49,689 nucleotides of DNA, taken from NCBI GenBank assembly GCA_044229835.1, contig JBGASF010000046.1:1-49689 (forward strand), written 5' to 3'. Positions 29,243-49,556 of the stretch are shown piece by piece. A program made the translations under genes and the position numbers. Source of the DNA: Polyangia bacterium. Its GTDB lineage: Bacteria > Myxococcota_A > Polyangia > Haliangiales > JADYYK01. Under the pieces are notes generated by a model. It was not told the DNA's origin. It made no database searches and saw only the letters and a program-made list of their open reading frames with translations. Positions within the stretch are counted from its first letter, which is position 1; the number at the start of each line of letters is the position of its first letter.

Positions 29243-29273
29243 GCCGCGCAGGGTAGCAGAAGCCGGCGGTGAC

Positions 29274-31783: not shown

Positions 31784-31791
31784 AGCGGGGA

Positions 31792-33093: not shown

Positions 33094-33138
33094 CGGGAGG
33101 CGAAGTCCTTTCTGCAATTCGGTTGCATCAAGCTGGGG

Positions 33139-33870: not shown

Positions 33871-33946
33871 GCAGAGGCGCGGAGTGTAACAGAGAATACT
33901 CAGGCGTCAGTCGCCATCCCGGGCCCTGGCGGGCCCAAGCAGCGGC

Positions 33947-33976
33947 TTGGCGATGGGTCCAACAAAATGCCATAAT
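33947..33976 (+). promoter_or_regulatory. Sigma70-like promoter candidate: TTGGCG, 18-bp spacer, CATAAT. Upstream of the coiled-coil protein gene, divergent from cpsB.
   Basis: Near-consensus -10 with acceptable -35 and spacing, about 45 nt upstream of ATG 34022. Confidence 0.35.
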
Positions 33977-34021
33977 CACGAGTCACGGGACGCACCGCCG
34001 CGTCCGCCGCGCGAGGAAACG

Positions 34022-34759
34022 ATGGCCGAGAAGAAAGAAAGCTCCGTGCTGTTTTCGCTCCGAGAGCTGCGCCAGCTGGAGGACGACCGCGTCACCAAGG
34101 AGCAGCAGGACCTGTCAGCGCGCCTGGCCGCCGAGAAGCAGGCCAAGCTCGACGCCGAGCGCCGCGCCCGTGAAGAGGAAGAGGCCAAGCTGCGCGCCGA
34201 GCAGGAGCGCGTGCGCGCCGAGCAGGAGCGTCGCGAGGCGCTGGAGCGCGAGGAGCGCATCCGGGTCCAGGAGACCGAGCGCAAGGCGCAGATCGAGGCG
34301 CAGATGCAGCTCGAGCAGCAGCGCCTGCACCACGAGCACGAGCAGAAGCTGGCCGCCGCGCCCAAGCGCAGCCACAAGGTGCTGTACGCCATCGTGGCCA
34401 GCATGGTCGTGCTGGTCATCGTGCTGGGCGTGGTCTTCTACATGAACAAGCAGAAGACCGACCGCGAGCGACGCCAGTCGGCCGCCGTGCTGGCCATGCT
34501 GCAGAAGCAGCTCGCCGACGCCGACGCCGAGTCCAAGGCGGTCAACGACCGCATCAAGGTGCTGACCGACCGGCTGGCCGCGGCCAGCACCCCGGAGGAG
34601 CGCGACGCCATCGGCGCCGACATCGCCAAGGAGACCAAGAAGTCGGAGGGCATCACGCGCAAGCGCAAGGACCTCGGCGAGAAGATGAAGAACCCCAAGG
34701 GGCTCAAGCTCGAGGACCTGAACACGACGGATGCCCTCGGGGGCATCAAGGGCCAATAG
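34022..34759 (+). CDS. Coiled-coil membrane protein (charged E/R/K-rich N-terminal coiled coil, one TM helix, C-terminal coiled coil).
   Basis: ATG with GAGGAA RBS. (AEQER)-type heptad-like repeats. TM helix VLYAIVASMVVLVIVLGVVFY. Confidence 0.6.
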   Translation: MAEKKESSVLFSLRELRQLEDDRVTKEQQDLSARLAAEKQAKLDAERRAREEEEAKLRAEQERVRAEQERREALEREERIRVQETERKAQIEAQMQLEQQRLHHEHEQKLAAAPKRSHKVLYAIVASMVVLVIVLGVVFYMNKQKTDRERRQSAAVLAMLQKQLADADAESKAVNDRIKVLTDRLAAASTPEERDAIGADIAKETKKSEGITRKRKDLGEKMKNPKGLKLEDLNTTDALGGIKGQ

Positions 34760-34766
34760 CTCCCTC

Positions 34767-34986
34767 ACCACGGTCACGGTCACGGTCACGGACCACGGAC
34801 CACGGACCACGACCCGCATCGCCGATCGCCGCTGCTGAGCCGTCCGCCCGCCGTCGCCGCCCGCCGCCCGCCGCCCGCCGTCGCCGTCCGCCGCCCGCCG
34901 CCCGCCGTTGCCGCCCGCCGCCCGCCGCCCGCCGGCGCCGCCCGCCGTCGCCGTGTGGCGTGACCGTGACCGTGACCGTGCGGTTG
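34767..34986. repeat. Composite intergenic repeat between convergent genes: (CGGTCA)x4 then (CGGACCA)x3, then ~16 copies of a CCGCCCG/CCGCCGT heptamer, then (GTGACC)x3. The outer arrays are inverted complements of each other.
   Basis: Direct reading. Left arm 34767-34794 is the reverse complement of right arm 34966-34986, so a ~22-bp stem could enclose a ~170-nt GC-rich loop. Confidence 0.85.
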
Positions 34987-34990
34987 GGGC

Positions 34991-36056
34991 TTACTTCGTG
35001 ACCTTGAAGGGGCGGGGGTGCTTGGTGGTGCCGGCTTCGGTGGTGAGGGTGAAGGTGGCGTCGGTGGTGTCGGGGGGGATCATGACGGTGACCGAGGTGT
35101 CGCCGGTGCGGGCCAGGACCTTGAGGGTGCGATCGCCGTAGGTGACCTTGGTGGCCTCGGTGAAGCCGGTGCCGGTCAGGGTCACGCGGGTGGTGGCGGG
35201 GCCCGAGGCGGGGGCGAAGTCGAGCAGCTTGGGCGGGGCGAGGACGACGAAGGGCGTCCCGAAGTCCACCACGGCCTTGCCGCGGCGGTGCTGGAACTTC
35301 GCGGTGACCGCGTTCTTCGGCAGCGTGGCCACGATGGACTTGGCGGTCAGGCGCTGGATCTCCAGCGGGCGGGTGCCCAGCCAGAGCTCGTCGCCGGCCT
35401 GGAAGTTGGCGCCGGTCAGCGTGACGGTGACGCCGGGCAGGCCGCGCGGCGGCTCGAAGCCGGTGATGGTCGCGGGCAGCACCAGCGTGAAGGGGCCGCT
35501 GGCGACGGCGCGCCCGCTGGGGTTCTCGATGCTGAACAGCTCGCCGGTGGCGGCGTCGGTGGGGACCTGGACCTTGAGCGTGGTCGGGGTGCGCTCGCGG
35601 ACGATCAGCGCGGTCTTGCCATAGCTGACCTTGTCGGTCGCGCTGGTCTCGGCCAGCGTGAGGGTGACCACGGTGCCGGGCGGGCCCGCCGAGGGCACGA
35701 AGGTCGACAGCACCGGGGCCGCGGGCAAGAGCTCGAAGGCGGGCTGCACCAGCAGCGGGCGGCTGCTGCCGCGCGTGATGGCCAGCTCGCCGCTGGCGGC
35801 GCCCCTGGGGATGGTCAGCTCGATCCGCGTCGGCTGGATGGTCGCGCTGACCGGCGCGCCGCCCACGCTGACGACGTCACCGGGCAGAAAGCCCGAGCCG
35901 TCGAGCACCACCTTGGTGCCAGGCGGCCCCTTCAGCGGGGCGAACCCGGTGACCCGCGCCGGCTCGACGATGGAGACCCAGCGCCCCGTCCACGGCCATG
36001 CCGCAGCCACACTCGAGGTCGCCAGCAGGACCCCGAGAACCGCCAGCCTTTTCATC
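34991..36056 (-). CDS. Secreted protein with tandem IPT/TIG (Ig-like) domains.
   Basis: Signal peptide MKRLAVLGVLLATSSVAAAW. Repeated ...TGF.P..G.PGT.V.L.G.GF... Ig-like units. GGAGG RBS. The track ORF's extended N-terminus overlaps a tRNA and is rejected. Confidence 0.7.
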
Positions 36057-36074
36057 GCAAACCTCCGCAAGGGG

Positions 36075-36146
36075 AGGTGCCGCCCGGATTCGAACCGGGG
36101 AATAGAGGCTTTGCAGGCCTCCGCCTTACCACTTGGCCACGGCACC
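36075..36146 (-). tRNA. tRNA-Cys (anticodon GCA).
   Basis: 72 nt. 7-bp acceptor stem GGTGCCG/CGGCACC, D-loop AGTGGTAA, anticodon loop CUGCAAA, T-arm GGTTCGAATCC, discriminator U. CCA not encoded. Confidence 0.85.
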
Positions 36147-36260
36147 GTGGTCAGAAACGAGGCGCAGTATATGCGGGGAGGGCAGGGTGTCAACGCCGCG
36201 ATGCAACTGAGTTATCGTAGCGACCAGGCCAGCGCAGGCCACGACAGGACCCGACAGGAC

Positions 36261-37364
36261 ATGGACTCTCCCATCCAGGATGCCGAGGTGGTGCGTCGCG
36301 GCGCCGAGCTGGCCGAGCTGGGCCGGCAGCTGGCGCGTCTCGGCCTGAGCCCCGAAAAGGTGCTGACCTTCACCGGGGCGCTGTCACTGGGTGACCTGTC
36401 GCGCGCCATCGACGACACCGCCCGGCGCGCCAGCAAGCTGCCCCGACCGCGCGGGCTGGGGGCGCTGATCGCGCTGCTGTGCTGTGGCCTGGCGCAGTCG
36501 GCGGCCGAGCTGGAGGCCGTGCTGGGGGCGCCCGCGCTGGCGCTCCTGGAGGCGGTCGGCGTGCTGGAGCGCGCGGGCGCCGACCTGGTGCCGCGGCTGG
36601 CGCTGGTGCCGGCGCAGCGCCGCCTGGGGGCGCGCGCCGGGCGCGCGGTCGGGCCGGTGGTGCTGGTCGCCCATGATCTGCACCGGCTGCGCTTCGAGTC
36701 GCTGGCGGTGATGGCGCCCGATCTGTCGTCGGAGCTGATGCTGCGCGCCAGCATCACGCGTGCGGGCAGCTGGCTCGACGTCGGCACCGGCAGCGGGGTG
36801 GTCGCGCTGGCGGCGGCGCTGCGCGGCACGCCGCGGGTGATCGCGGCCGATCTCAACCCGCGGGCGGGCGCCTTCGTGCGCCTGGGTGCGGCGCTGAACG
36901 GGGTCGCCGGCGCGGTGACCGCGCTGGAGTCCGACCTCATGCAGGCGGTGCCGCCGGGGCGGCATGACGTCATCACCTTCAACTCGCCGCTGCTGTTCGG
37001 CATGGGCGACCTGCTGTGGCGCAACACCGCGGAGGGGCCGGCGCTGCTGCGCCGCTTCTTCGATGACCTCGCGCCCCGGCTGGCCGGTGAGGCGCTGATC
37101 CACGCCCAGCTGCCGCACGACGAGCGCGTGCTGCCCGCGCGGGTGCCGATGACCGATCCCGCGCGCTTCCACGGCCTCAGCCTGCGCTACGAGCTGGGCG
37201 AGGAGTGGGCCCAGGGCCTGCTCTGGCTGACGCCCGCCGGCGGCGGCCGCGCCATCTGGGTCGAGGAGCTGCACGAGCCCACGCCCGAGCAGCTGTTCCT
37301 CGATCGCGAGCAGCTCGAGATCGCGCTGGCGCGCAACGAAATGCGCTCGCCCGTGGCCACGTAG
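36261..37364 (+). CDS. Class I SAM-dependent methyltransferase (MTS/PrmC-like small-domain type).
   Basis: Motif I LDVGTGSGVVALAAA. Post-motif DLNPRA reminiscent of N-methyltransferases. Real start MDSPIQ... (ATG 36261) within track ORF 35631..37364. Confidence 0.6.
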   Translation: MDSPIQDAEVVRRGAELAELGRQLARLGLSPEKVLTFTGALSLGDLSRAIDDTARRASKLPRPRGLGALIALLCCGLAQSAAELEAVLGAPALALLEAVGVLERAGADLVPRLALVPAQRRLGARAGRAVGPVVLVAHDLHRLRFESLAVMAPDLSSELMLRASITRAGSWLDVGTGSGVVALAAALRGTPRVIAADLNPRAGAFVRLGAALNGVAGAVTALESDLMQAVPPGRHDVITFNSPLLFGMGDLLWRNTAEGPALLRRFFDDLAPRLAGEALIHAQLPHDERVLPARVPMTDPARFHGLSLRYELGEEWAQGLLWLTPAGGGRAIWVEELHEPTPEQLFLDREQLEIALARNEMRSPVAT

Positions 37365-37382
37365 TTGATGTAGGAGAGGGCG

Positions 37383-38564
37383 ATGGCTGCGATTGTGGTG
37401 CAGAAGTATGGCGGGTCGTCGGTCGCCGACGTCGAGAAGCTACGCCGGGTTGCGCGCCGGGTGGTCGACACCGCGCAGACCGGCAAGCGGGTCTGCGTGG
37501 TGGTCTCGGCGATGGGCGACACCACCGACGAGCTGCTCGCGCTGGCGCGCAAGGTGTCGCCGGCGCCGCAGCGGCGCGAGCTCGACATGCTGCTGTCGGC
37601 CGGTGAGCGCATCTCGATGTCGCTGCTCTCGATGGCCATCCACGAGCTGGGCGCCGAGGCCATCTCGTTCACCGGATCGCAGAGCGGCATCATCACCAAC
37701 GATCGCCACTCGGGCGCGCGCGTCCTCGAGGTGCGGCCCTACCGCATCCAGGACGAGCTCGAGCGCGGCAAGATCGTCATCGTCGCCGGCTTCCAGGGCG
37801 TGTCGTACAAGAAGGAGATCACCACGCTGGGGCGCGGCGGGTCGGACACCACCGCGGTCGCGCTGGCGGCGGCGCTGGGCGCCGAGTTCTGCGAGATCTG
37901 CTCCGACGTCGATGGCGTGTACAGCGCCGACCCGCGCGTGGTCGACGCGCCGCGCCTGCTGGCCGCGGTCAGCTACGACGAGATGCAGGAGCTGGCGGCG
38001 CTGGGCGCCAAGGTGCTGAACCCGCAGTGCGTGGAGTTCGCGCGCTCGGCGGGGATCGCGATCTTCGCCCGCGCCACCGCGGGCGGCGGGGCCGGCACGG
38101 AGATCGGCGCGGCGCACAGCGGGCGGCGCGTGGTCGGCGTCACCGGCACCGGCGACCTGGTGCGGGTGCGCTTCGCGGGGCGCGGCGGGGCGGCGCGGGC
38201 GCGCACGCTGGCGCACGCCCTGGCCGAGGACGGCGTGGTCACGCTGTGTGGCGGCGCGGCCGAGGACGGCGGGGCCTGGGTGTTCGAGACCGACGACCTG
38301 CCCGACTGGGCCAAGGTCAAGGCGCGCATCGTGGCCATCGGCGGCAGCGACGTGGTGATCGAGGAGGGGCTGGGCGCGGCCAGCGTGGTGGGGCAGGGCA
38401 TCGGCGGCGATCCCGCGGCGCTGGAGAAGGCGCTGACGGTGGCGCACGAGCTCGGCGTCGAGACGCTGGGGGTGTACACCTCGCCGCTGCGCATCACGCT
38501 GCTGGCGCCGCCGGCGCGCATCAAGGAGCTGGTGCGCGCGCTGCACGCCGCGCTGTGCGCGTGA
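37383..38564 (+). CDS. lysC: Aspartate kinase.
   Basis: N-terminus [19 protein letters not shown], and AAK-family fold signatures with C-terminal ACT-like region. AGGAGAG RBS. Confidence 0.9.
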
Positions 38565-38626
38565 CGGTGGCCGGCCGTGCGCGCGGCGGCTGGTCCGGCC
38601 GCGCGCCGGCGTAGTACCTTGGCGCC

Positions 38627-39424
38627 ATGTTCGGTCTGCGCGGTGGTGCCCGGCCTGCCAATGACGCCCGTGGGGTGAGCCCGGGCGAGCGGCCCCGCTG
38701 GGGGCGCGCCGGCGGCCGGCCGCTGGTGATCGGCCACCGCGGCGCCTCGGCGCGGGCGCCCGAGAACACGCTCGCGGCCTTCGCGCTGGCGCGGCGCGAG
38801 GGCGCCGATGGCGTCGAGCTCGACGTCATGCGCTGCGGCTCGGGCGAGCTGGTGGTGTTCCACGACTGGGACCTCGAGCGGCTGGGCCAGCGCCCGGGCA
38901 AGGTGGCCCGGCTGCCCCTCGAGGCGCTGCGCGAGGTCGACCTCGGCGGCGGCGAGCGCATCCCCCTGCTATCCGAGGTGCTGGAGCAGCTCGGGCCCGA
39001 CATGCTGGTCAACGTCGAGCTCAAGGTGCGCGGCTCCGGCGTAGGCGGCGAGCTGGCGGCGCCGGTCGTCGGCACGCTGCGCCGGCACGCCATGGGCGCG
39101 CGGGCGCTGGTGTCGAGCTTCCACCCGCTGGAGCTGGCCCGCGTGCGCGCGCTGGCGCCCGACGTGCTGACCGGCTACCTGTTCCACGCCGAGCAGGCGC
39201 TGCCGCTGCGCCGCGCCTGGCCGGCGTGCTGGCTGCGCCCGGCGGCGATGCACCCCGATCGCCAGCTGGTGTCGGAGCCCGCGGTGGCGCGCTGGCACCG
39301 CCGCGGCATGGCGGTCAACGTGTGGACGGTCGACGAACCAGGGCCACTGCGGGCGTTCGCGGCGATGGGCGTGGATGGTTTGATCACGAATGATCCAGCA
39401 GGCGCGCGGGCGGCGCTGGCCTGA
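38627..39424 (+). CDS. Glycerophosphodiester phosphodiesterase family protein.
   Basis: GDPD motifs [19 protein letters not shown] and GADGVELDV. Confidence 0.8.
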
Positions 39425-39438
39425 GCACGAGCACGAGC
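39421..39438. repeat. Short (GAGCAC)x2.7 microsatellite between convergent genes.
   Basis: Direct reading. Confidence 0.7.
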
Positions 39439-39445
39439 CGGTGCG

Positions 39446-41878
39446 CTAGTAGTCGCCGCTGCCGCCGCCCTGCGACAGGCCGCGCAGCAGGTTCTGCGCC
39501 GCGACGTCGACCGGGCCCAGCAGGTCGACCACGTCCTCGACGTGCTTGCCGAACTCGGCGGACTGGTTGTACATGCGCTTGATGCGCTTGAACTCGGTCT
39601 CGCCGACGCCGAAGCCGGCGTAGTCGCGGCCGTCGCCGCGCCAGCCGATGGTGCCGTTGAAGAACTCGAGGATCTCGCGCGGGGTGCAGTCGGTGCGCGA
39701 GCTCATCGCGGCGCGCGCCAGCGCGACCACCTCGCGGACCGACGAGGTCAGGAGCATCACGGTGGCGTAGCGCTCGCCCGGCTTCTTGCCCGCGGGCGCC
39801 GGCGCCAGCCCGGCGCCCTTGAGCTTGGCGTCGTCGCGCGCGACGCGATCGAGCTGCTCGCCGAGCTTGAGGTACTCCTCGCGGCGCTGCGCCACCTGCT
39901 TCTGCAGCGCGTAGGCCTTGGTGGCGTAGGTCTCGACCGAGACGCGGTACTTGGTGGCCTGCTCCTTGAGCTTGAGCGCCCCGCTGACCTGCGAGATCTG
40001 CGCGCAGTGGGTCTCGACCGCGTAGATCTTGGCGCGCAGCGAGTTGACCTCGCTGGCGAAGTAGAAGTCGGCGATGGCGTTCATGGCGCCGCCGATGCTG
40101 GTCGGCAGCGTGAAGCCGCCGTCCTGCTCGTACGAGGTGTTGCGCCCGTCCTCGCCCGGCTTCTTGGAGACGTCGAGATCGGTCTTGGTCTGGACGTTGC
40201 GCACGATGATGGCGCCGTCCTTGTTGGTGGTGGTGTAGGTCGGGTTCCAGCGCGCCGGCTTGCCCGCCATGATGGCGCGCTTGTTGCGCCCGGCGTTGAT
40301 GGTGGCGCCCATCATGTTGACCTTCTCGGTGGCGTTGGCGATGGCCGCGGGGGCGCCGTTGACCACCGCGGCGGTGGTGTCGATGGCGCTGCCGACCTGC
40401 TTGATGAAGGCCTTGGTCTTCTCGATCTCGCCCATGCGCTCGCGCGCGCCGTCGGCCTCGTGGTTCTTCTTCTCCTTGTCGAGCTCGAGCATGTGCTGCT
40501 GGAAGCCGAGGAAGTCGGCCTGCATGGCCTTGTGCGCCATGGTGGCCTCCATGGCGGAGGTGGTCACGTCGTGGCCCTGCGAGGGCTCGGCCAGGTGCTC
40601 GGAGGCGTCGCGCGAGCCGGCGTTGTAGAGATCGCGGATGCGCTCGCCGACCGCGCCCGCGCCGGTGGCGGCGACCCCGGCGCCGGAGTCGCTGGCGTGG
40701 CCGAGCTCGCGGGTCAGGCCGGCGACCATGGCCGACACGTTGTGGCCGATGCCGAGCGCGTTCATCTGGCCCTGCAGGCGCGTCATCGAGCCCCACACCG
40801 CGTTGGCCTGCGGCACCCAGGCGTTGAACCCGGTGAACTGCTGCTCCTCGGTGGTGCGGTCGCTGATGAGCTGGCGCAGCTTGCCCTCGAGGATCGGGAT
40901 GGCCTCGCCGGCCTGCTGCTTCTGCCAGTACATGTGCGAGCCGAACATGCCCTCGCCGCTGATCTTCTTGTTCTTCTCGATCTGGTTCTGCAGGTAGGTG
41001 CGGCCCTTCTCGATGGCCGAGAAGTCGGGCGCGACCTGGTGCAGCTGCAGCTCGTCGGGCGTCATGTGCAGGATCGACAGCTGCTTGCCCTCGTCGGCCA
41101 GCTCGACGGCCTCGCTGGCCGACTGCTTGAGCAGGGCGCCGCTGTAGCCGGCCTCGCCGGCGTGGATCTCCTGGTTGCCGTGGATCGGCATGGCCTCGGT
41201 GGGGCCGCCGATGCCGGGATCGGCGCCGACGTTGGCGTTGACGTTCTCCTTGCGCATCATGCGCGCCACGCCGCTGGCGCCGGCCGACACCTGCGCGGGC
41301 GCGCCCAGCACCATGCGGTCGGCGGCGGCGTCGGCCTCGAGCTCGAAGGCGTCACCGGGGGTCGACACCTGGGCCTTGCCGGCGGGCACCGGGGCGGCGC
41401 CGCGCTGCTGCACGGTGTGGGCGACCTCGTGCGCGAGCAGGGCCTCTCCGCCGCGCGAGCCCGGCGTGTACTCGCCGGCGCCGAAGTGGATGTCCTGGCC
41501 GAACGCGAAGGCACGCGCGCCCAGGGCGTCGGCGGCGCCGGCCGACTCCGCGCCGGTGTGCACGCGCACGCCGCCGAGGTCGGTCCCCAGCGAGCCCTCG
41601 AACTTGCTGCGCAGGCCGTCGGGCAGCTGCACGCCGCCGCCGGTGGGCACGCTGTCGACCGCGCCGGCGCTGGTGTCGGCGCCGGGGGCGGAGGCGGCAG
41701 CGCCGTCCTTGGCCTGGCGCTGTACGATCCCGTCGGCGAGGGTGCGCCGTCCCGGGGGCGCGCCGTTGCTGTTCTCGGGCGACTGCTTGGACTCGACCTC
41801 GTGGTTTGCCGACTGCTGATAGCGCATGGCCGCTGCTAGAGCAGCCGGCGTGCCCACAGGGGCCCACGCGGTTTCCAC
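39446..41878 (-). CDS. Large DUF4157 (zincin-like, HExxH) domain protein with about 600 aa of uncharacterised C-terminal region; candidate polymorphic-toxin/eCIS-type effector.
   Basis: Region LPDGLRSKFEGSLGTDLGGVRVHTGAESAGAADALGARAFAFGQDIHFGAGEYTPGSRGGEALLAHEVAHTVQQRG matches the DUF4157 consensus including HExxH. Start GTG 41878 or ATG 41827. Confidence 0.65.
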   Translation of the reverse strand: METAWAPVGTPAALAAAMRYQQSANHEVESKQSPENSNGAPPGRRTLADGIVQRQAKDGAAASAPGADTSAGAVDSVPTGGGVQLPDGLRSKFEGSLGTDLGGVRVHTGAESAGAADALGARAFAFGQDIHFGAGEYTPGSRGGEALLAHEVAHTVQQRGAAPVPAGKAQVSTPGDAFELEADAAADRMVLGAPAQVSAGASGVARMMRKENVNANVGADPGIGGPTEAMPIHGNQEIHAGEAGYSGALLKQSASEAVELADEGKQLSILHMTPDELQLHQVAPDFSAIEKGRTYLQNQIEKNKKISGEGMFGSHMYWQKQQAGEAIPILEGKLRQLISDRTTEEQQFTGFNAWVPQANAVWGSMTRLQGQMNALGIGHNVSAMVAGLTRELGHASDSGAGVAATGAGAVGERIRDLYNAGSRDASEHLAEPSQGHDVTTSAMEATMAHKAMQADFLGFQQHMLELDKEKKNHEADGARERMGEIEKTKAFIKQVGSAIDTTAAVVNGAPAAIANATEKVNMMGATINAGRNKRAIMAGKPARWNPTYTTTNKDGAIIVRNVQTKTDLDVSKKPGEDGRNTSYEQDGGFTLPTSIGGAMNAIADFYFASEVNSLRAKIYAVETHCAQISQVSGALKLKEQATKYRVSVETYATKAYALQKQVAQRREEYLKLGEQLDRVARDDAKLKGAGLAPAPAGKKPGERYATVMLLTSSVREVVALARAAMSSRTDCTPREILEFFNGTIGWRGDGRDYAGFGVGETEFKRIKRMYNQSAEFGKHVEDVVDLLGPVDVAAQNLLRGLSQGGGSGDY

Positions 41879-41967
41879 GGGTTACCGCGGGTTGCCCCCT
41901 GGCCCAGCATGGCCTGGTCCGTGAACCACCCGCGCTGGTGCAGCCCACGGGGGCGACCGCCACAGCG

Positions 41968-42864
41968 TCAGCGCGGCGGCAACAGGTGGTCGATCAGGGC
42001 ACGCGCCGCCGCCGAGCGTCGCGGCGTGGCGGGGTAGATCAGCGAGAAGGGGCGGCTGGCGCCGCGGTGGTCGCGCAGCACCTCGACCAGGAGGCCGCGC
42101 TCGACGGCGTCCTTGACCAGGAAGTCGTAGCTCTGGATGAGGCCGAGGCCGGCGCGGGCCAGGGTGACCAGGGCGACGACGTCGTCGGAGCAGCGCACCG
42201 GGGCGGGTGGAGTGAAGGCGCGGGGCCCGGGCAGGAAGCTCCAGGGCAGGGGGCGGCCCGTGCTCGGCATGGTGAAGGTGATGCAGGTGTGATCGACGAG
42301 CTGCGCCGGGGTGCGCGGGGCGGGGTGGCGCGCCAGGTACGACGGCGCGGCGTAGACCCCGAGCGGGAAGTCGCCCAGCTTGCGCGCGATGAGGCCCTTG
42401 TCACGGATGAGGCCCTGGCGGATGGCGAGGTCGAAGCCCTCCTGGGTGAAGTCGATGTTGCGGTTGCCGATGTGGAGGTCGAGCTCGATGGCGGGATAGC
42501 GCTCGCGGAAGGCGGCCAGCGCGGGCAGCAGGCGGTGGTGGCCGAACGAGGTCGGCGCGCTCAGGCGCACCACCCCGGCGTGGACGCCCCCGCGCGCGGC
42601 GACCTCGTGCTCGGCGAGCTCGAGCAGCGCGAGCGCTTGCTTGGCGGCGCGGTAGTAGGCGTGGGCCTCGTCGGTGGGCGTCACGGTGCGCGTGCTGCGC
42701 CGGAACAGGCGCACGCCCAGGGTGTCCTCGAGGCGGACGACGCTGCGGCTGGCCGCCTGCGGGGTCACGCCGAGCTGGCGGGCGGCCCTGGAGAAGCTGC
42801 CCAGCTCGAAGGCGGCGCAGAAGGTGAGGAGGTTGGGCAGGGTCGATTGCAGCGCCATGGTCAC
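41968..42864 (-). CDS. LysR-family transcriptional regulator.
   Basis: N-terminal wHTH (LLTFCAAFELGSFSRAARQLGVTPQAASRSVVRLE) plus LysR substrate-binding domain. Divergent from the DJ-1 gene. Confidence 0.85.
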   Translation of the reverse strand: MTMALQSTLPNLLTFCAAFELGSFSRAARQLGVTPQAASRSVVRLEDTLGVRLFRRSTRTVTPTDEAHAYYRAAKQALALLELAEHEVAARGGVHAGVVRLSAPTSFGHHRLLPALAAFRERYPAIELDLHIGNRNIDFTQEGFDLAIRQGLIRDKGLIARKLGDFPLGVYAAPSYLARHPAPRTPAQLVDHTCITFTMPSTGRPLPWSFLPGPRAFTPPAPVRCSDDVVALVTLARAGLGLIQSYDFLVKDAVERGLLVEVLRDHRGASRPFSLIYPATPRRSAAARALIDHLLPPR

Positions 42865-42977
42865 TTGTACATCGATGGTACAGGTGATGTGCGATTGTCA
42901 CCACTACTGCGCGGCGCCGCCAGGAGGCATCTTGCTCTCACCGGGCACACACGACCGGCAAGGCCAAGGAGAGAGCC

Positions 42978-43667
42978 ATGACGACGACGACGACCCAGAA
43001 GCGCATCCTCATCGCCACCACCAGCCATACCCAGCTCGGCGACACCGGCAAGCCCACCGGGGCCTACCTGGCCGAGGTCGCGCACCCCCACGCGGCCTTC
43101 GTGCGCGCCGGCCATGGCGTGGAGTTCGCCAGCGTACGGGGTGGCCAGATCCCGCTCGACGGCGTGGCCGACGCCGACGCCGGAAGCCGCGCCTTCCTGG
43201 AGGCCCACGGCGCCGAGCTGGCCAGCAGCCAGGCCGCGGCGAGCGTCGACCCCGCGCGCTATGACGCCATCTTCTTCGCCGGTGGCCACGGCACCATGTG
43301 GGATCTGCCCGAGGACGCGGCGTTCCAGCGCGTCGCGGCGGCGATCTACCAGCGCGGCGGCGTGGTCGCCGCGGTGTGCCACGGCCCGGCCGCGCTGGTG
43401 AACCTGCGCCTCGCGGATGGTCGCTACCTGGTCGATGGCAAGCGGGTCAGTGCCTTCACCAACGAGGAGGAGCGCGCGGTGAAGCTCGAGGGCGTGGTGC
43501 CGTTCCTGCTCGCCGATGCCCTGGTCGCGCGCGGCGCCCAGCACGTGCCGGCGCCCAGCTGGAAGTCGCACGTGGTGGTCAGCGAGCGGCTGGTGACGGG
43601 GCAGAACCCGGCGTCGGCGACGGGGGTGGCGGAGGCGGTGGTCAAGGTGCTGGCGGGTGAAGCCTGA
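42978..43667 (+). CDS. DJ-1/PfpI (class I glutamine amidotransferase-like) family protein.
   Basis: Nucleophile elbow AAVCHGPAAL. Overall ThiJ/HchA-like pattern. Confidence 0.75.
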   Translation: MTTTTTQKRILIATTSHTQLGDTGKPTGAYLAEVAHPHAAFVRAGHGVEFASVRGGQIPLDGVADADAGSRAFLEAHGAELASSQAAASVDPARYDAIFFAGGHGTMWDLPEDAAFQRVAAAIYQRGGVVAAVCHGPAALVNLRLADGRYLVDGKRVSAFTNEEERAVKLEGVVPFLLADALVARGAQHVPAPSWKSHVVVSERLVTGQNPASATGVAEAVVKVLAGEA

Positions 43668-43668
43668 G

Positions 43669-43716
<48 letters not shown>

Positions 43717-43735
43717 GCGCCAGGGCGGCCGGGGG

Positions 43736-45628
43736 TCAGCGTGGACGCAGGGTCAGGATCTCGTGCGGTTCATCGAAGCCCTTCAGGCGCCTGGCGAAGC
43801 TGTGGCTGGGCTCGGCCTCGGCGGCGGCGACGCGGGCGACCTCGGGGCGGGTCGAGAGCTCGGTCAGCAGCGCGACCTCGTTGGCGCCGGCCTGGGCCTG
43901 CAGGCGGGCGGCCAGGTTGACGGTGGTGCCGAAGAAGTCGAGGCGGCCGTTGGCGCGCACGGCGAGGCAGGCGCCCTCGTGGATGCCGACGCGCACGGCG
44001 AGGTCGGGCACGCCGCGCGCCGCGGCCGACCTGCCGACCTCGCGCGCCATCTCGAGGCCGGCCGACAGCGCCCGCGCCGGCGAGGTGAAGGTGGCCATCA
44101 CGGCGTCGCCCATGGTCTTGACCACCGCGCCCTGGTGCGCCGCGATGACCGCCGAGACGTCGCGGAAGTGGGCCTGCACCAGGGCGAAGGCGCGGGCGTC
44201 GCCGATGCGACGGTACAGCGCCGTGGTGCCGGTCAGGTCCGAGAACAGCACCGCCAGGTGGCCCACCGTCAGGTCCAGCCCGACCGCCGGGGCCTCGGCC
44301 GAGAACAGGTCGATGAACTCCGGGAAGGTCGCCAGCAGGGTGCCGGGCACCGCGTCGGAGGGGAAGTCGGCGCGCTCGAACAGCAGGGTCAGCGGCACCG
44401 AGGTGCTGTTGCTGCACGCCAGGGTGGTGCTGCCGTCCTGGCTGTCCTCGCTGGCGCGCGCCAGCAGCAGCCCGGCGTCGGTGACCTCGACCTCCACCGC
44501 GCGCGGCGCCGGGTGCGCGGGCAGCAGGGCACGGCGCTGGCCCGCGCGCACCAGCAGCCCCCCGGGCGGCAGCGCCAGCTGCAGCGCGCGGCGCTCCCCG
44601 GCCTCGAGCCGGACGCCGGCGAACAGCTGGGGGCGATGCCAGGGCGAGGCCGCGCAGAAGACGCTGGGCCTGACCGGGCGCAGCGCGGCGTTGACGCTGA
44701 AGGTGGCCTCGACGTTGGCGGCCAGGTCCAGCTCGAAGGCGATGTCGCAGTCGGCGCAGTGCGCGCGCCGGGCCAGCTGGTCGAGGCTGGTCGCGACCTC
44801 GGCCCCGACCCGGCACACCGGGCAGTCGAGCTGCCAGCGCAGGTCGACCAGGCCGGCGCGGGTGGCGTACAGGAAGCCGCGCACGACGTCGCGCTCGTCG
44901 GCGCTCCAGGCCCGCGCCAGCTCCAGCGGACGCAGCTGGGTCAGCTCGTCGTCCGCGCGCGTGCGCAGCAGCTCGACGATGCGGTCGCGCACCTCGGGCC
45001 GCACCGGCGCCTCGGCGAAGCGGCCAGCGCAGAACGCGAAGGGCTCCTCGGCCAGCGCCGAGGACGGGCCGTTCCACGCCGGGTCGGCCCCGCTGGCCCA
45101 CAGGAAGCGCCGCGCCTGGCGCAGCGCGGGCTCGTCCCGGTCGGCCGTGGCCGCCAGCGCCGCCGCGCCGCCGCGCTCGAGCACGCCGGCCAGCGCCTCG
45201 ACGTGGCGCACCAGCGCCTGCCCGGTGCGCTCGATCATGGCCGCCGCCAGCTCGGCGGGCAGCATCGGTGCGCGCTCGATGTACGAGCGCACCTCCAGCC
45301 GGGTGCCGCCGGCCTCCGCCGCCACCGTGTAGGCGTAGCCGCCGCGCGCCACCGGCCCGGTCAGGAAGCGGCGCTCGGCGGTCAGGCGCTGGCCCTCGAC
45401 GCCGTCGCCGATCTCCAGCCAGGACACCTCCATGCCCATCACGCGGGTGCGCCCGACCTGCGCCCGCGTGCGCGGATCGGCCGGGTCGATGAGCTCGTAG
45501 CTGTAGCTCGACTGCTTGAACCCGATGGCGCGATCCCAGCGATTGGAGTCGGCCATCAGCGCCCACACCAGCCCCGGGGGCCCCGGCAGCAGGCGCGACA
45601 CCTGGGTCTCGTAGAGGAGCTGGCTCAC
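43736..45628 (-). CDS. Class III adenylate/guanylate cyclase with N-terminal SRPBCC-like ligand-binding domain and a CxxC...CxxC zinc-ribbon-like element.
   Basis: C-terminal catalytic domain (LAVLFSDLTGTTALYRR..., VKTMGDAVMATF, RVGIHEGACL...FGTTVNLAARLQ). N-terminus YETQVSRLLPGPPGLVWALMADSNRWDRAIGF looks like a Bet v1/START strand. CPVCRVG...CADCD in the middle. The upstream 183 aa of the track ORF is junk. GTG start overlaps upstream TGA. Confidence 0.75.
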   Translation of the reverse strand: MSQLLYETQVSRLLPGPPGLVWALMADSNRWDRAIGFKQSSYSYELIDPADPRTRAQVGRTRVMGMEVSWLEIGDGVEGQRLTAERRFLTGPVARGGYAYTVAAEAGGTRLEVRSYIERAPMLPAELAAAMIERTGQALVRHVEALAGVLERGGAAALAATADRDEPALRQARRFLWASGADPAWNGPSSALAEEPFAFCAGRFAEAPVRPEVRDRIVELLRTRADDELTQLRPLELARAWSADERDVVRGFLYATRAGLVDLRWQLDCPVCRVGAEVATSLDQLARRAHCADCDIAFELDLAANVEATFSVNAALRPVRPSVFCAASPWHRPQLFAGVRLEAGERRALQLALPPGGLLVRAGQRRALLPAHPAPRAVEVEVTDAGLLLARASEDSQDGSTTLACSNSTSVPLTLLFERADFPSDAVPGTLLATFPEFIDLFSAEAPAVGLDLTVGHLAVLFSDLTGTTALYRRIGDARAFALVQAHFRDVSAVIAAHQGAVVKTMGDAVMATFTSPARALSAGLEMAREVGRSAAARGVPDLAVRVGIHEGACLAVRANGRLDFFGTTVNLAARLQAQAGANEVALLTELSTRPEVARVAAAEAEPSHSFARRLKGFDEPHEILTLRPR

Positions 45629-46170
45629 GGCGCGCCCAGGCCCGGCGGCGTCGCGGCGTCGGGCCGGCTGATGGCGGCGTCGCACACCTTCATGGTGCAG
45701 TCGGCGCTCTGGTTGGCGCCCACGCAGCGGCAGGTGTTGCAGTCGACCGGGTAGGTCTCGCCGGCCTCGTAGTACCTGCCGGCCTGCGCACAGCCACACA
45801 GGGCGCCGCGCGCGGTGGTCCCGCCGGCGCCGACCGTGACCTCGACCGGGACGCCCAGGCTGCCGATCACCAGCCCCTCGCGCGCCTCCTCGGCGCACAG
45901 CTCGATGCGCACGCGCGCGCCCAGGGCGTCGCCGACGGCGCTGATGGTCGCGACGCCGCGCTGCGCGGCCAGCCGCTCGTGGTGCGCGGCGACCACGTCC
46001 TGCACGTGGCGCAGCGCGTTCAGGCCGGCGGCCACGGCGGCGTCCATGGTGGGCGGGCCGGAGGCCGAGGGGGCCGGCGTCTGCGCGCGACCCGACCGGC
46101 GCCGGCAGGCTGGCACGGCGAGCTCGACCAGCAGCAGAATCGCGAGCACAAACGGGGCTCTCGCGCGCAC
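45625..46170 (-). CDS. Secreted protein with signal peptide and a C-terminal 8-Cys module, translationally coupled to the cyclase.
   Basis: Signal peptide MRARAPFVLAILLLVELAVPA. C-terminal ...CGC...CNTCRC...CTMKVC. GTGA overlap with the downstream gene start. Occupies a different frame from the junk N-extension of the cyclase ORF. Confidence 0.5.
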   Translation of the reverse strand: MRARAPFVLAILLLVELAVPACRRRSGRAQTPAPSASGPPTMDAAVAAGLNALRHVQDVVAAHHERLAAQRGVATISAVGDALGARVRIELCAEEAREGLVIGSLGVPVEVTVGAGGTTARGALCGCAQAGRYYEAGETYPVDCNTCRCVGANQSADCTMKVCDAAISRPDAATPPGLGAP

Positions 46171-46292
46171 GTCCGCACGTTAGCACGGCCTCGGTTGACG
46201 CCCGCTCAGGAAGCGGTCAACCTAATCGCCCCGTTTGGCTGGACGCGCATCGCTAGAACAGCCCCGGGACGATAGCGCTGGGAGGGGATCTG

Positions 46293-48854
46293 ATGGACGA
46301 GCGGACGCAGAAGCGGGACCTGGTGCTCGCACCGAGCGAGTACGCCTATATGCAGGACGTCACCAAGGGCATCATCAAGACGTACACCGGCCCGACGGTG
46401 ATCAACCCGACGGCGCAGGAGCGCCCGGTGCTCTTCAACACGCAGAAGAAGCGCTTCGAGGGCTGCACCCTCGAGCAGGCCGTGCAGCAGGCGGCCATCG
46501 CGCCCGAGGGCTACTACCTGGTGGTGAAGAACCCGTCGGTCAAGGGTGATCACCCGGTCGCCGGCGGCGTCTACCCGTCGCCCGACCTGCACGTCGGCCG
46601 CAAGATCAACATCACCGGGCCGTGCGACTTCGCGCTGTGGCCGGGCCAGATCGTCAAGCTGGTCCAGGGCCACCACCTGCGCTCGAACCAGTACCTGCTG
46701 GTGCGCGTGTACAACGAGGAGGAGGCGCGCGGCAACTGGCGCAAGGCCGTGGTCAAGCCGGCCGCCGCCGAGGCCGGCGCGCCCGAGACCGTGGGCGCGC
46801 CGCCGCCGACCCTGCGCGTGCCCAGCGATCTGACCGTGGGCAAGCTGCTCATCATCAAGGGCACCGATGTGTCGTTCTACATCCCGCCCACCGGCGTCGG
46901 CGTGGTGCCCGACGAGGGCGGCCAGGTCTACGTGCGCGACGCCCTCACGCTGGAGCGCCTGGAGTACTGCATCCTGGTCGACCAGAACGGCAAGAAGCGC
47001 TACGAGCGCGGCCCCCAGGTCGTGTTCCCGGAGCCCACCGAGACCTTCATCACCAAGGACGGTCATCGCAAGTTCCGCGCCCTCGAGCTGAACGAGATCC
47101 AGGGCCTGCACATCAAGGTCATCGCGCCCTACGAGGAGGCCGGGCGGCGCTACAAGGAGGGCGACGAGATCTTCATCACCGGGAAGGAGACCGCGATCTA
47201 CTTCCCGCGCGAGGAGCACTCGCTGGTGCGCTACGACGGCAAGGACAAGCACTTCGCCGTCGCGGTGCCCGCGGGCGAGGCGCGCTACGTCATGAACCGC
47301 AAGAGCGGTGAGATCCGCATGACGCTGGGGCCGGCCATGCTGCTGCCCAACCCGACCGACGAGGTCATCGTGCGCCGTGTCCTGACCGACAAGGAGTGCA
47401 TGACCTGGTACCCGGGCAACGACGAGGCGCTGGCCTACAACCGCAGCCTGCGCCAGGTCGCCATGCACGCGCCGACCACGCGCGCCGGCGTGGTCTCGGA
47501 GGGCGACTACGAGCGCAGCCAGCGCCGCGGCGGCCAGCAGAAGCAGGGCGCGATGGCGGCCTCGGTGGCGATGGAGGGCAGCTCGGTCAGCAAGGACAGC
47601 GCCGCCATGATGGGCGACGTGCTGGAGCGCGGCTCCAACTTCACCCAGCCGCGCACGCTGGTGTTCAACACCAAGTACGAGGGCGTGCCCTCGGTCAACG
47701 TCTACGTCGGCTACGCCGTGATGGTGATCGACAAGAAGGGCCACCGCCGTGTCGAGCAGGGGCCCAAGAACATCCTGCTGCAGTACGACGAGACGCTGGA
47801 GGTCATCGAGCTGTCGACCGGCAAGCCGAAGTCGACCGATCGGCTGATCCTGACGGTGTTTCTGCGCGTGCTCAACAACAAGGTCGGCGACATCTGCGAG
47901 GTCGAGACCTCGGATCACGTGCGCGTGCGCCTGACCTACTCGCTGCGGGTCAACTTCGAGGGCGATCCGGACCGCTGGTTCGAGGTCGAGAACTACGTCA
48001 AGTTCCTGTGCGATCACGTGCGCTCGGTGCTCAAGGGCGCGGTCAAGCGCCACTCCATCGAGGCCTTCTACGCCGGGTCGGTCGACCTCTTGCGCGACAT
48101 CATCCTGGGCAAGAGCAGCGACAAGGGCGAGCGCGCGGGCATGAAGTTCCCCGAGAACGGCATGCACGTGACCGACGTCGAGGTGCTGGCGGTCGAGATC
48201 GACGACGCGCGGATCGCGGCGCTGCTGGCCGAGGCGCAGCACGAGGCGGTGGAGTCGAACATCACGCTGCTGCGCGCCAACCGCGGCCTGGAGGTCACCC
48301 GGCGCAAGGAGGAGATCGCGCGCCAGGAGGCCGAGGCCAAGACCGCGACGCTCAAGCGCAAGGCCGAGCTGGAGGTCGAGGAGACCGCCAGCAAGCTGCG
48401 CACGGTGCTGGCCGGGATCGGGGCCGAGATCGCGCAGCATGACGAGCGCAAGAAGGCGGCCGAGGCCAAGAACGCCGGCGTCGACGTCGAGCACAAGGCG
48501 CAGCTCGAGCGCGATCGCTCGGTGGCGGTGTTCAAGCAGGAGGTCCAGAAGAGCGAGCAGGCCATCCGCCTGGCCGCGCTGGAGGCCGACGCGCAGAACG
48601 CCATCAAGCGCTTCCAGGCCGCGCAGGCGGGCTTCTCGGAGGCGCTGCTGGCGGCGTCGAACAACGAGCTGCTGGTCAAGGTGGCCGACGCCATGAGCGT
48701 GCAGCACTTCATCGGCGGCAAGACGCTGACCGACGTGGTCGACCGCATCTTCGCGGGCACCCCGCTGGCGGGGCTGATGGAGCGGGTCAAGGACCGGGTC
48801 ACCAGCAATGGTGGCGCGCGGCTGTCGGCCCCGCCGGCGACGCCGAGCAAGTGA
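46293..48854 (+). CDS. Major vault protein (MVP) homologue: N-terminal MVP repeat domains, shoulder (SPFH/band-7-like) domain and C-terminal cap-helix coiled coil.
   Basis: Collinear similarity to eukaryotic MVP. N-terminus LAPSEYAYMQDV...GP...ERPVLF...YYLVVKNP compared with human IPPYHYIHVLD...GP...ERVLF...HYCTVANPV. Shoulder region LSTGKPK...ETSDHVRVRLTYSLRVNFEG...FLCDHVRSVLKGAV compared with LSAGRPK...[20 protein letters not shown]...ACKAIASRVRGAV. Long C-terminal helix ending ...GKTLTDVVDRIFAGTPLAG. Host-like GC. Confidence 0.8.
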   Translation: MDERTQKRDLVLAPSEYAYMQDVTKGIIKTYTGPTVINPTAQERPVLFNTQKKRFEGCTLEQAVQQAAIAPEGYYLVVKNPSVKGDHPVAGGVYPSPDLHVGRKINITGPCDFALWPGQIVKLVQGHHLRSNQYLLVRVYNEEEARGNWRKAVVKPAAAEAGAPETVGAPPPTLRVPSDLTVGKLLIIKGTDVSFYIPPTGVGVVPDEGGQVYVRDALTLERLEYCILVDQNGKKRYERGPQVVFPEPTETFITKDGHRKFRALELNEIQGLHIKVIAPYEEAGRRYKEGDEIFITGKETAIYFPREEHSLVRYDGKDKHFAVAVPAGEARYVMNRKSGEIRMTLGPAMLLPNPTDEVIVRRVLTDKECMTWYPGNDEALAYNRSLRQVAMHAPTTRAGVVSEGDYERSQRRGGQQKQGAMAASVAMEGSSVSKDSAAMMGDVLERGSNFTQPRTLVFNTKYEGVPSVNVYVGYAVMVIDKKGHRRVEQGPKNILLQYDETLEVIELSTGKPKSTDRLILTVFLRVLNNKVGDICEVETSDHVRVRLTYSLRVNFEGDPDRWFEVENYVKFLCDHVRSVLKGAVKRHSIEAFYAGSVDLLRDIILGKSSDKGERAGMKFPENGMHVTDVEVLAVEIDDARIAALLAEAQHEAVESNITLLRANRGLEVTRRKEEIARQEAEAKTATLKRKAELEVEETASKLRTVLAGIGAEIAQHDERKKAAEAKNAGVDVEHKAQLERDRSVAVFKQEVQKSEQAIRLAALEADAQNAIKRFQAAQAGFSEALLAASNNELLVKVADAMSVQHFIGGKTLTDVVDRIFAGTPLAGLMERVKDRVTSNGGARLSAPPATPSK

Positions 48855-48877
48855 CGCGGCGCTGAGCGAGGCGAGCG

Positions 48878-49445: not shown

Positions 49446-49447
<2 letters not shown>
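48878..49447 (+). CDS. Putative 2H phosphoesterase-superfamily protein (LigT/cyclic phosphodiesterase-like), immediately downstream of the MVP homologue.
   Basis: Two H-x-T/S-x motifs in the expected contexts: HFTVFGFSIG and HVTLYTS. About 190 aa. 23-nt gap after the MVP stop. Confidence 0.45.

Positions 49448-49556
<109 letters not shown>

Follow-up and report, generated by a model that had tools for sequence, protein, structure and literature searches.

The gene at 39446-41878 of the 49.7-kb window (the whole stretch of DNA that was analysed) probably encodes a stray cargo or accessory protein of a phage-tail-like injection system, because the family to which it belongs usually sits in injection-system gene clusters elsewhere. 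We hold with moderate confidence that it is an orphan member of a cargo-like family associated with contractile injection systems (CISs), with a layout like that of the cargo proteins Cgo1 and Cgo2. The activity of its product is probably non-enzymatic.

Gene and protein architecture

The ORF is a genuine, intact coding gene, and its GC content by codon position (0.68/0.48/0.98) matches that of the genuine genes of this window (72% GC). A 765-aa ORF on the opposite strand (39542-41839) was rejected as a shadow ORF. Gene callers placed the start in three independent assemblies at the ATG at 41827, 17 codons downstream of the GTG of the maximal ORF, and this ATG is the likelier start. Residue numbers of domains and motifs refer to the 793-aa version (only the PF13699 match, aa 84-161, is numbered on the 810-aa version). 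We found no sigma-70-like promoter, and terminator-like sites are no more frequent than in shuffled sequence. The features of the gene and its product are as follows.

39446..41878, minus strand: maximal ORF, 810 aa, GTG start (GC3 0.98)
39446..41827, minus strand: likeliest coding sequence, 793 aa, ATG start, stop codon included (gene calls in independent assemblies)
41666..41827, minus strand: polar N-terminal region, aa 1-54, predicted disordered, without signal peptide (AF2, composition and hydropathy)
41396..41629, minus strand: DUF4157/eCIS_core zincin-like domain, aa 67-144 (PF13699, E=2.5e-28; AF2 pLDDT 92-97)
41417..41431, minus strand: intact HEVAH (HExxH) motif, followed by TVQQ; HEVAHTVQQ is aa 133-141 (sequence)
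41183..41395, minus strand: linker, aa 145-215, with an ELEAD helix after the zincin core and a low-confidence Gly/Ala-rich stretch (composition, AF2)
39449..41182, minus strand: conserved ~590-aa all-alpha module, aa 216-793, of an unnamed family (91 representatives, alignments, AF2)
40349..40396, minus strand: the family's most conserved motif, VG-x-(A/T)-ID...NGAP, aa 478-493 (family alignments)
40187..40246, minus strand: small beta insertion NPTY-x6-G-x5-N-x-QT, aa 528-547, which marks one subfamily (alignment, AF2)
39449..39469, minus strand: Gly-rich C-terminal tail GGGSGDY, with the conserved terminal Tyr last (54/60 complete members)

The original prediction of a DUF4157 protein with an HExxH motif is confirmed: the match to PF13699 (eCIS_core, formerly DUF4157) spans model positions 1-78 of 79 and scores 98.5 bits, well above the Pfam gathering cut-off of 22, and the HExxH motif is present. 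At the N-terminus, aa 12-49 have pLDDT<50 in the full-length AF2 model and are predicted to be disordered, so that by AF2 and hydropathy the protein has the disordered, hydrophilic N-terminus without a Sec/Tat signal that is expected of cargo. No TM helix, signal peptide or hydrophobic N-terminus was found in the protein (the maximum 19-aa hydropathy anywhere is 1.28); a soluble, cytoplasmic protein of ~793 aa is the best explanation, and the earlier suggestion of a secreted metalloprotease-like protein is not borne out.

The remaining ~600 aa had been described as lacking a recognisable domain, and they indeed gave no match in Pfam, NCBIfam, PHROGs, PADLOC or PDB sequences, whether searched as a single sequence or as a profile. 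The top PDB profile match of this part (Tic22, E=0.0017 over 80 residues) was judged spurious. A structural search gave no significant match and no toxin or enzyme fold, so the toxin fold that remote-homology and structure searches were meant to reveal here did not appear. AF2 models (pTM 0.62 for the module, 0.64 for the full-length protein) contain helices of up to 68 aa, and the only structural neighbours of the module are tape-measure, SMC or hook-junction-like coiled coils, none of them significant. D483, within the VG-x-(A/T)-ID...NGAP motif, is nearly invariant, and the motif is modelled at low confidence. The window protein lacks the LQRxxGNxAV motif found in module-only family members.

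The module family and its association with injection systems

The family was revealed only by an exhaustive HMMER scan of 1.84 billion cluster representatives (E<=1e-3); a word-indexed homologue search returned just three relatives of the C-terminal region, and a 23-sequence alignment used as query did no better. Of the 91 representatives found at E<=1e-3, 37 reached E<=1e-30, and many align over the whole module. They come from six phyla (Myxococcota, Chloroflexota, Bacteroidota, Actinomycetota, Gemmatimonadota and Cyanobacteriota), with a module identity of 30-45% across phyla, and the terminal Tyr (GGGSGxY) is present in 54 of the 60 members with a complete C-terminus. The family is rare, undescribed and unnamed. 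PF13699 is present in 27 of 50 full-length members, and DUF4157 and the module occur either fused or as adjacent genes: for example, a 253-aa DUF4157 gene lies 4 bp upstream of a module-only gene at L007-9, and at L021 the module gene is followed by a DUF4157 gene. Loci in genomes and metagenomes were found with a hand-designed degenerate DNA pattern for the beta insertion (NPTY-x6-G-x5-N-x-QT); true family members accounted for 10 of 11 genome matches and six of seven metagenome matches, and the pattern had no viral matches.

CIS genes adjoin the homologue in 11 of 19 independent loci: eight have sheath, tube or Pvc16_N genes beside the module gene, and three more have an AAA ATPase gene. The usual slot is between a Cis15/Pvc15-type AAA+ ATPase and Pvc16_N/sheath, and it is constant in clusters from five phyla. 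In one full CIS cluster, which surrounds the homologue P0011, the order is Pvc16_N, WHD+AAA, DUF4157, DUF4157+module, Pvc16_N, sheath, two tube genes, DUF4157, CIS_tube, VgrG, PAAR and gp25. The same slot carries tandem DUF4157 proteins that differ in their C-terminal regions, which is the pattern expected of a cargo array. Overall, clusters with a homologue look like those of the cytoplasmic CIS lineage of Streptomyces/Chloroflexota. The window protein had been proposed as a candidate cargo or effector; this reading is strengthened, because homologues of its unannotated part sit within CIS clusters, and it is weakened by the gene's own locus, which has no CIS gene.

DUF4157 is itself an eCIS marker (PMC8213781, PMC11297309), and the closest parallel in layout is provided by Cgo1 and Cgo2 of the Algoriphagus machipongonensis AlgoCIS, lumen cargo proteins with an NTD-DUF4157-CTD arrangement (PMC8894135), whose loading requires the NTD and can dispense with DUF4157 (bioRxiv 10.64898/2026.05.27.728243). 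The window protein likewise has a disordered N-terminus, a central DUF4157 domain and a folded C-terminal domain (the likeness drawn here is one of layout), and its homologues are also encoded in CIS clusters with a Cis15-type AAA+ ATPase, sometimes with tandem DUF4157 genes. Unlike the Cgo genes, the window gene lies outside such a cluster, and its module is a multi-phylum family with a terminal Tyr rather than a system-specific domain. The arrangement of N-terminal DUF4157, long linker and C-terminal domain is also that of the DUF4157-bearing eCIS-associated toxins (EATs) of Geller 2021 and Danov 2024 (PMC8213781, PMC11297309), among which the window protein would belong to the 983 predicted members that have DUF4157 as their only annotated domain. 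Validated EATs, however, have enzymatic toxin domains that can be recognised (deaminase, transglutaminase, nuclease and others); 88% of them are encoded within ten genes of an eCIS operon (PMC8213781, PMC11297309). The window protein lacks an enzyme fold, and the window is without eCIS genes.

The main rival to the cargo reading gives the module a structural or assembly role, as an accessory of one CIS lineage and not an injected effector: it might scaffold or plug the lumen, serve as an adaptor for the cap or terminator, or be the AAA+ ATPase's partner or substrate-mimic. The window copy would then be a dispersed copy or a relic. The constant slot in five phyla, the end-to-end conservation, the near-invariant Tyr on a flexible Gly tail (which resembles a docking peptide) and the long helices throughout, with coiled coils as the only structural neighbours, all point this way; identity of 30-45% across phyla at a fixed cluster position fits a lineage-specific structural or assembly part better than typical variable cargo. 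But a structural part would not usually be an orphan at about 40% of loci, as the module gene is, the fusion to DUF4157 behind a disordered N-terminus is the layout of proven cargo (PMC8894135), and the gene is dispensable between close relatives (see below). Moreover, the tape-measure/Tme-like slot (tube to tube initiator) is held by another DUF4157 protein, which in cluster L010 does not resemble the module (hhalign probability 0.1%). We consider a structural role possible but unlikely. The module was also rejected as a tape measure protein: it has no Pfam or PHROG match to one, its tape-measure matches in BFVD fall short of significance (E>=5e-3, TM about 0.1) and its gene lies beside the AAA ATPase in clusters.

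Two further systems share features with the family. Tme (BN159_7576) of Streptomyces davawensis is a tape-measure-related CIS effector with DUF4157 (PMC11126660); as in the window protein, an N-terminal DUF4157 domain is followed by a long, largely helical region, and the gene order of its CIS cluster resembles that of clusters holding the homologues. Tme, however, is 2,247 aa long and about 70% disordered, with predicted TM helices and a nuclease at its C-terminus, and is encoded between the tube and tube-initiator genes (PMC11126660), whereas the window family has neither TM helix nor nuclease and its slot is beside the AAA ATPase. The CIS effectors Sco4256-4258 of Streptomyces coelicolor occupy a slot similar to that of the homologues, flanked in a cytoplasmic CIS cluster by the AAA ATPase side and the sheath operon; these non-enzymatic lumen-filling proteins (single-TM, ricin-type domains) are without DUF4157 (PMC10066040), which the window protein has, and share no detectable homology with it.

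The window locus and its strain variation

None of the CIS/T6SS structural genes (sheath, tube, Pvc16_N, VgrG, PAAR, gp25, Cis15) was found in the window, as originally stated: Pfam annotation of 31 window ORFs gave housekeeping and regulatory genes only, and a tblastn search of the window with 13 proteins from a complete CIS cluster had the DUF4157 gene itself as its sole match. The flanks covered, 39 kb to one side of the gene and 8 kb to the other, are thus free of CIS genes. An EAT gene is expected in a CIS operon or at most about ten genes from one; the window gene departs from this, whereas homologues at 11 of the 19 loci conform. A LysR regulator gene lies just upstream on the same strand, in housekeeping surroundings, and on the other side a GDPD gene is convergent, 21 bp apart. 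The adjacent immunity gene that was to be looked for is absent, no immunity-type gene being found beside the window gene, and no downstream gene is conserved across the family loci. We count against the cargo reading the lack of CIS genes near the window copy and in view at 8/19 loci, the lack of an immunity neighbour and the missing LQRxxGNxAV motif.

An orphan locus amid housekeeping genes, downstream of a same-strand LysR gene, would also fit a CIS-independent role in this genome; the protein might, for example, be a zincin-like protease or regulator of the cytoplasm, built on a helical scaffold, or be exported by another route. Several homologues are orphans as well (eight of 19 loci have no CIS gene in view, four of them with good flanks: the window, L001, L007 and L031), and a complete Kofleriaceae genome has AAA+DUF4157 gene pairs with no sheath or tube genes within 10 kb. 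However, effector genes of contractile systems are commonly distant from the apparatus, the family as a whole is strongly linked to CISs, and the window protein has no export signal. The eCIS specificity of DUF4157 in surveys is also very high (odds ratio 2614; PMC8213781), and we regard a CIS-independent role as distinctly unlikely.

Comparison with a sister genome (GCA_963853155.1) delimits a strain-variable segment around the gene.

39420..45681, no strand: strain-variable segment with the DUF4157-module gene, LysR, DJ-1/PfpI and DUF5939 adenylate cyclase genes (sister-genome comparison)

The flanks share 91-94% nt identity between the two, the window copy is absent from the sister genome, and ~11 kb with Dicty_CTDC and RHS/YD-shell genes is found at the site; the absence makes the DUF4157-module gene dispensable between close relatives, and the RHS toxin genes support the cargo reading. 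Neither IS nor att-like repeats turned up in the flanks in a repeat search, whose sole finding is a (GCACGA)n microsatellite at two intergenic junctions. Another allele (P0123) is 100% identical to the window protein from aa 143 to 793, but from aa 23 to 142 the identity is only ~60%, with a recombination breakpoint near 41400, just after HEVAH. Alleles exchange an N-terminal cassette with the module unchanged.

This variation bears on the proposal that the protein is a polymorphic toxin of the classical type or a secreted HExxH metalloprotease, which would have a C-terminal toxin domain that varies and a cognate immunity gene. Many validated toxins carry an N-terminal DUF4157 domain (PMC8213781, PMC11297309), there are many short Kofleriaceae DUF4157 paralogues that vary in length, and the sister genome has an RHS toxin cassette at this very site. 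The DUF4157 matches listed are Kofleriaceae/Myxococcota proteins from other assemblies. However, the C-terminal ~590 aa are one family throughout, conserved to the last residue, the sole allelic mosaicism found is N-terminal, and there is no immunity-like neighbour, signal peptide or toxin fold. No DUF4157 paralogue from the same or the sister genome was seen among the matches listed. The conserved C-terminus already largely refutes the proposal, which now seems hardly credible.

Proposed function and implications

As cargo, the window protein would be recognised through its disordered N-terminus, by analogy with Cgo1/Cgo2, and a CIS AAA+ ATPase, with its gene at another place in the genome, would unfold it and load it into the tube lumen, from which sheath contraction would expel it. 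The all-alpha module may then act non-enzymatically, on a membrane or protein target or by merely filling the lumen; as the homologues' clusters are like those of cytoplasmic CISs of Streptomyces/Chloroflexota, the target could be the producer cell itself. A more speculative idea, to which we give little credence, is that the module is an unrecognised, widely conserved CIS component whose flexible GGGSGxY-COOH tail would serve the neighbouring Cis15-type AAA+ ATPase as a signal for docking or loading. This would be a second recognition route besides the N-terminal signal, and the exchangeable DUF4157 cassette would fit the one payload to a variety of host systems.

DUF4157 proteins are the main bioinformatic marker of CIS cargo, and their C-terminal regions are mostly of unknown function. 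One such region is now defined as a discrete conserved family, present in six phyla, usually encoded beside the loading ATPase, with a near-invariant terminal Tyr and a swappable N-terminal cassette. The window locus itself yields a modest result: the copy there is orphan and strain-variable, and any partner machinery it has is outside the window. As a structural protein, the module would supply a part that has been missing from the Streptomyces/Chloroflexota-type CIS; as cargo, it would be an unusually conserved, apparently non-enzymatic payload that could aid the understanding and engineering of loading.

The DUF4157 gene and its product

The gene at 39446-41878 on the minus strand reads as the original prediction described it, an 810-aa ORF with a GTG start, and its codon-position GC (0.68/0.48/0.98) follows the pattern of genuine genes in this window of ~72% GC. 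Gene calls in three independent assemblies start at the ATG at 41827, giving a protein of 793 aa; residues are numbered on this version throughout. The proposed DUF4157 domain was confirmed by a full-length match to Pfam PF13699 (eCIS_core, formerly DUF4157; E=2.5e-28, 98.5 bits, cut-off 22), in which HEVAHTVQQ is uninterrupted. Two studies describe DUF4157 as a highly specific marker of extracellular contractile injection systems (eCIS) (PMC8213781, PMC11297309). The remainder of the protein has no match in Pfam and NCBIfam, among PDB sequences (single sequence and profile searches), or in PHROGs and PADLOC. No signal peptide was found in the protein, and no transmembrane helix (peak 19-residue hydropathy 1.28). 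A 765-aa ORF antisense to the gene, at 39542-41839 (+), is not a gene but a shadow ORF of the sort common where GC is high.

The C-terminal module as a protein family

A word-indexed search returned only three relatives of the C-terminal region (the module, aa 216-793). An exhaustive phmmer search of 1.84 billion cluster representatives returned 91 at E<=1e-3 (73 of them at E<=1e-10, 37 at E<=1e-30), and numerous matches span the entire 611-residue query. In alignments, conserved motifs run the full length of the module: FNAWVPRAN, EINE-K...VG-TID...GAP, HNPTY...VRN-QT, LPTS, RR-YL-FG-QLD-FAR, ERYATIM...REV and a Gly-rich tail. The last residue is a tyrosine in 54 of the 60 members with a complete C-terminus, typically in GGGSGxY. 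PF13699 is found in 27 out of 50 full-length members; the rest are mainly module-only proteins, 600-650 aa long. An N-terminal LQxxxGNxAV motif occurs in 18 representatives (17 of them without HExxH); in module-only members (e.g. P0015, P0019, P0026, P0033 and P0045-47 of family alignment A2) LQ(R/Q)xxGNxAV stands in the place of DUF4157. The window protein lacks this motif, which may serve as an alternative signal for targeting or loading. By these alignments the module is a single domain family coupled to DUF4157, not a variable toxin tip.

AF2 models were obtained for the module alone (pLDDT 71.6, pTM 0.62) and for the full-length protein (pLDDT 79.0, pTM 0.64). In the full-length model the N-terminus is disordered (aa 12-49, pLDDT<50), the DUF4157 core is modelled with confidence (pLDDT 92-97) and the module is all-alpha, with helices of up to about 68 residues and a small beta insertion at the NPTY...QT motif; one of two low-confidence segments spans the most conserved motif, VGSAIDTT...NGAP. 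Foldseek searches detected no enzyme, toxin or pore-former fold; in PDB (best E=0.08, TM<=0.17) and BFVD (best E=3e-3, TM about 0.1; Rad50/SMC and tape-measure proteins) alike, the matches were to generic long helices or coiled coils only.

Genomic contexts of the homologues

P0011, 36% identical to the window protein over the module, is encoded in a canonical contractile injection system (CIS) cluster, locus L010, with the gene order:
Pvc16_N, WHD+AAA ATPase, DUF4157 (679 aa), DUF4157+module (1056 aa), Pvc16_N-CarboxypepD_reg, sheath, tube, small gene, tube, DUF4157 (975 aa), CIS_tube, VgrG-like, PAAR, gp25

Further loci came from a search with a degenerate DNA pattern built on the NPTY...QT motif. 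True family members made up 10 of its 11 matches in GTDB genomes and six of its seven in JGI metagenomes; IMG/VR gave no match to it. After removal of duplicates, 19 informative loci were scored by tblastn with the L010 proteins and by Pfam.

CIS genes beside the module gene in the 19 loci
Sheath, tube or Pvc16_N adjoining (8/19): L010/11/33; L005/L017 (Gemmatimonadaceae); L032; L012 (Ferruginibacter); L015 (Propionibacteriales); L021 (Chloroflexia); L027; L028/30
Cis15-type AAA ATPase adjoining (3/19): L003; L013 (Kofleriaceae); L022 (Chloroflexi)
No CIS gene in view (8/19; good flanks in just four: window, L001, L007, L031): window; L001 (Nitrolancea); L006; L007-9; L014; L016; L019 (Desertifilum); L031

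Most commonly the module gene has the AAA ATPase on one side and Pvc16_N/sheath on the other. Tandem DUF4157 genes with differing C-terminal regions share this slot in L010 and L028; the 679-aa neighbor (L010 7924-9963) weakly resembles the module's C-terminal third in a profile comparison (hhalign probability 70%, E=4e-5), and the tandem genes of L010 may be distant paralogues. The DUF4157 protein in the Tme-like slot has no similarity to the module. In L007-9 and L021, DUF4157 and module are separate neighboring genes, in either order, which argues that the two parts work together. We regard these contexts as the decisive evidence for a link to CIS, and membership of the window protein in a CIS-linked family is well supported.

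Two side observations concern Kofleriaceae. In GCA_047600425.1 (L025 6978-10894) a 1007-aa WHD+AAA (Cis15-like) gene is directly followed by a gene for a 297-aa DUF4157 protein, 49% identical to the window N-terminus, with FHA-domain genes nearby and no sheath/tube gene within 10 kb; AAA+DUF4157 pairs may thus exist outside complete CIS clusters. In a Kofleriaceae MAG, the module and AAA genes are followed, a few genes further on, by one (L013 6838-7506) of the SUKH-1 (SMI1_KNR4) family, whose members are immunity proteins in polymorphic toxin systems.

In gene order, the clusters that hold the homologues are similar to those of the Streptomyces type, where tube and tube initiator flank a DUF4157 effector related to tape-measure proteins (PMC11126660); this lineage and Chloroflexota CIS are described as acting in the cytoplasm (PMC10066040, PMC12998442). 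The window protein shares the architecture reported for Cgo1/Cgo2 of AlgoCIS, proven lumen cargo with disordered NTD, DUF4157 and folded CTD (PMC8894135); there the NTD is reportedly needed for loading via a Cis15-type ATPase and DUF4157 is dispensable (bioRxiv 10.64898/2026.05.27.728243). We infer that the window protein would be cargo, not a structural part. A lineage-specific structural or assembly accessory, to which we give about one chance in four, is favored by the fixed synteny of the module gene, the end-to-end conservation of the module and the tail ending in tyrosine.

The window locus and its variation

The window is one complete 49,689-bp NCBI contig of a MAG, with housekeeping and regulatory genes (serA-, hisS- and purA-type, ABC-F ATPase, MlaD proteins, UDP-glucose dehydrogenase, a TIG-domain protein, tRNA-Cys, a methyltransferase, aspartate kinase, GDPD) and, beyond the DUF4157 gene, LysR, DJ-1/PfpI, DUF5939 adenylate cyclase and a major-vault-protein homologue, in this order.

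Other features of the window
16260-17651: ORF without Pfam match, in a low-GC stretch
17636-19036: PQQ_2/BamB-like ORF, same stretch
36073-36146, minus: tRNA-Cys (GCA), by both ARAGORN and Rfam
46293-48854, plus: 853-aa homologue of eukaryotic major vault protein, MVP_shoulder (E=8.7e-27) and Vault_3

GC is about 0.62 at 16000-19000 and about 0.72 elsewhere, and this segment may be foreign DNA. The tRNA overlaps the 5' end of the listed 400-aa TIG-domain ORF (34991-36193), and the true start of that gene must therefore lie downstream of the listed one. Related MAGs keep the vault-protein homologue at >=90% identity; after it comes a conserved 189-aa ORF without Pfam match (48878-49447). Two (GCACGA)n microsatellites flank the DUF4157-LysR-DJ-1 block: 2.5 units just past the GDPD stop codon (39424-39438), the site of the synteny break with the sister genome, and about eight units just past the DJ-1 stop codon (43671-43716).

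The DUF4157 gene, with flanks of 39 kb and 8 kb, was the sole match in the window to the 13 proteins of the complete CIS cluster (tblastn) and is therefore a true orphan. The convergent GDPD gene is only 21 bp from its end, leaving no room for an immunity-type ORF downstream. A search for sigma-70-like promoters was negative, and terminator-like sites show no excess over shuffled sequence. That the protein works here independently of any CIS is unlikely; a CIS elsewhere in the genome is presumed.

The sister genome (GCA_963853155.1, 8.02-Mb contig) is 91-94% identical in nucleotides to window 29271-39419 and 45682-49464, and has, in exchange for 39420-45681, about 11 kb (L023 11464-20750 / L024 1-8754) with genes for two Dicty_CTDC proteins plus two toxin-type RHS/YD-shell (teneurin-like) genes; degraded LysR fragments lie directly against GDPD. 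In another related MAG, going by accession order, just two genes separate GDPD from the vault-protein homologue. The site of the DUF4157-LysR-DJ-1-cyclase block looks like a variable 'weapon' island.

Four sequences make up the 90%-identity cluster of the protein, none of them from the sister genome: the window copy, P0001, a 94-aa fragment and a second allele, P0123. P0123 is 100% identical to the window protein over aa 143-793 but only about 60% over the N-terminus and DUF4157 core, aa 23-142 (window ~41400-41761), with the recombination breakpoint directly past HExxHxxQQR. For the N-terminal 215 aa, the nearest relatives come from Kofleriaceae and other Myxococcota and are short DUF4157 proteins (45-65% identity); the nearest module outside the species is from Nitrolancea (40%). 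Together these indicate a payload-like module that stays constant and an N-terminal cassette that is swapped locally, the opposite of polymorphic-toxin logic. A classical polymorphic toxin or secreted protease, among the readings offered by the original prediction, is essentially refuted. The explanation we favor, at about even odds, is that the window protein is an orphan from a cargo-like family associated with CIS: it would be packed into a CIS whose genes lie elsewhere in the genome, and its all-alpha module would act non-enzymatically.

Proteins of this kind, DUF4157 CIS-associated proteins, are known already, and 983 predicted eCIS-associated toxins are reported to have no annotated domain other than DUF4157 (PMC11297309). 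What is new is the delineation of the C-terminal region as a conserved family in six phyla with a characteristic cluster position, a near-invariant terminal tyrosine and a swappable N-terminal cassette; the 38 papers in the searched library that mention DUF4157 hold no apparent description of it. Though not surprising, the finding is a useful lead for CIS specialists; the window copy, an orphan, has no partner within the window on which to test it.
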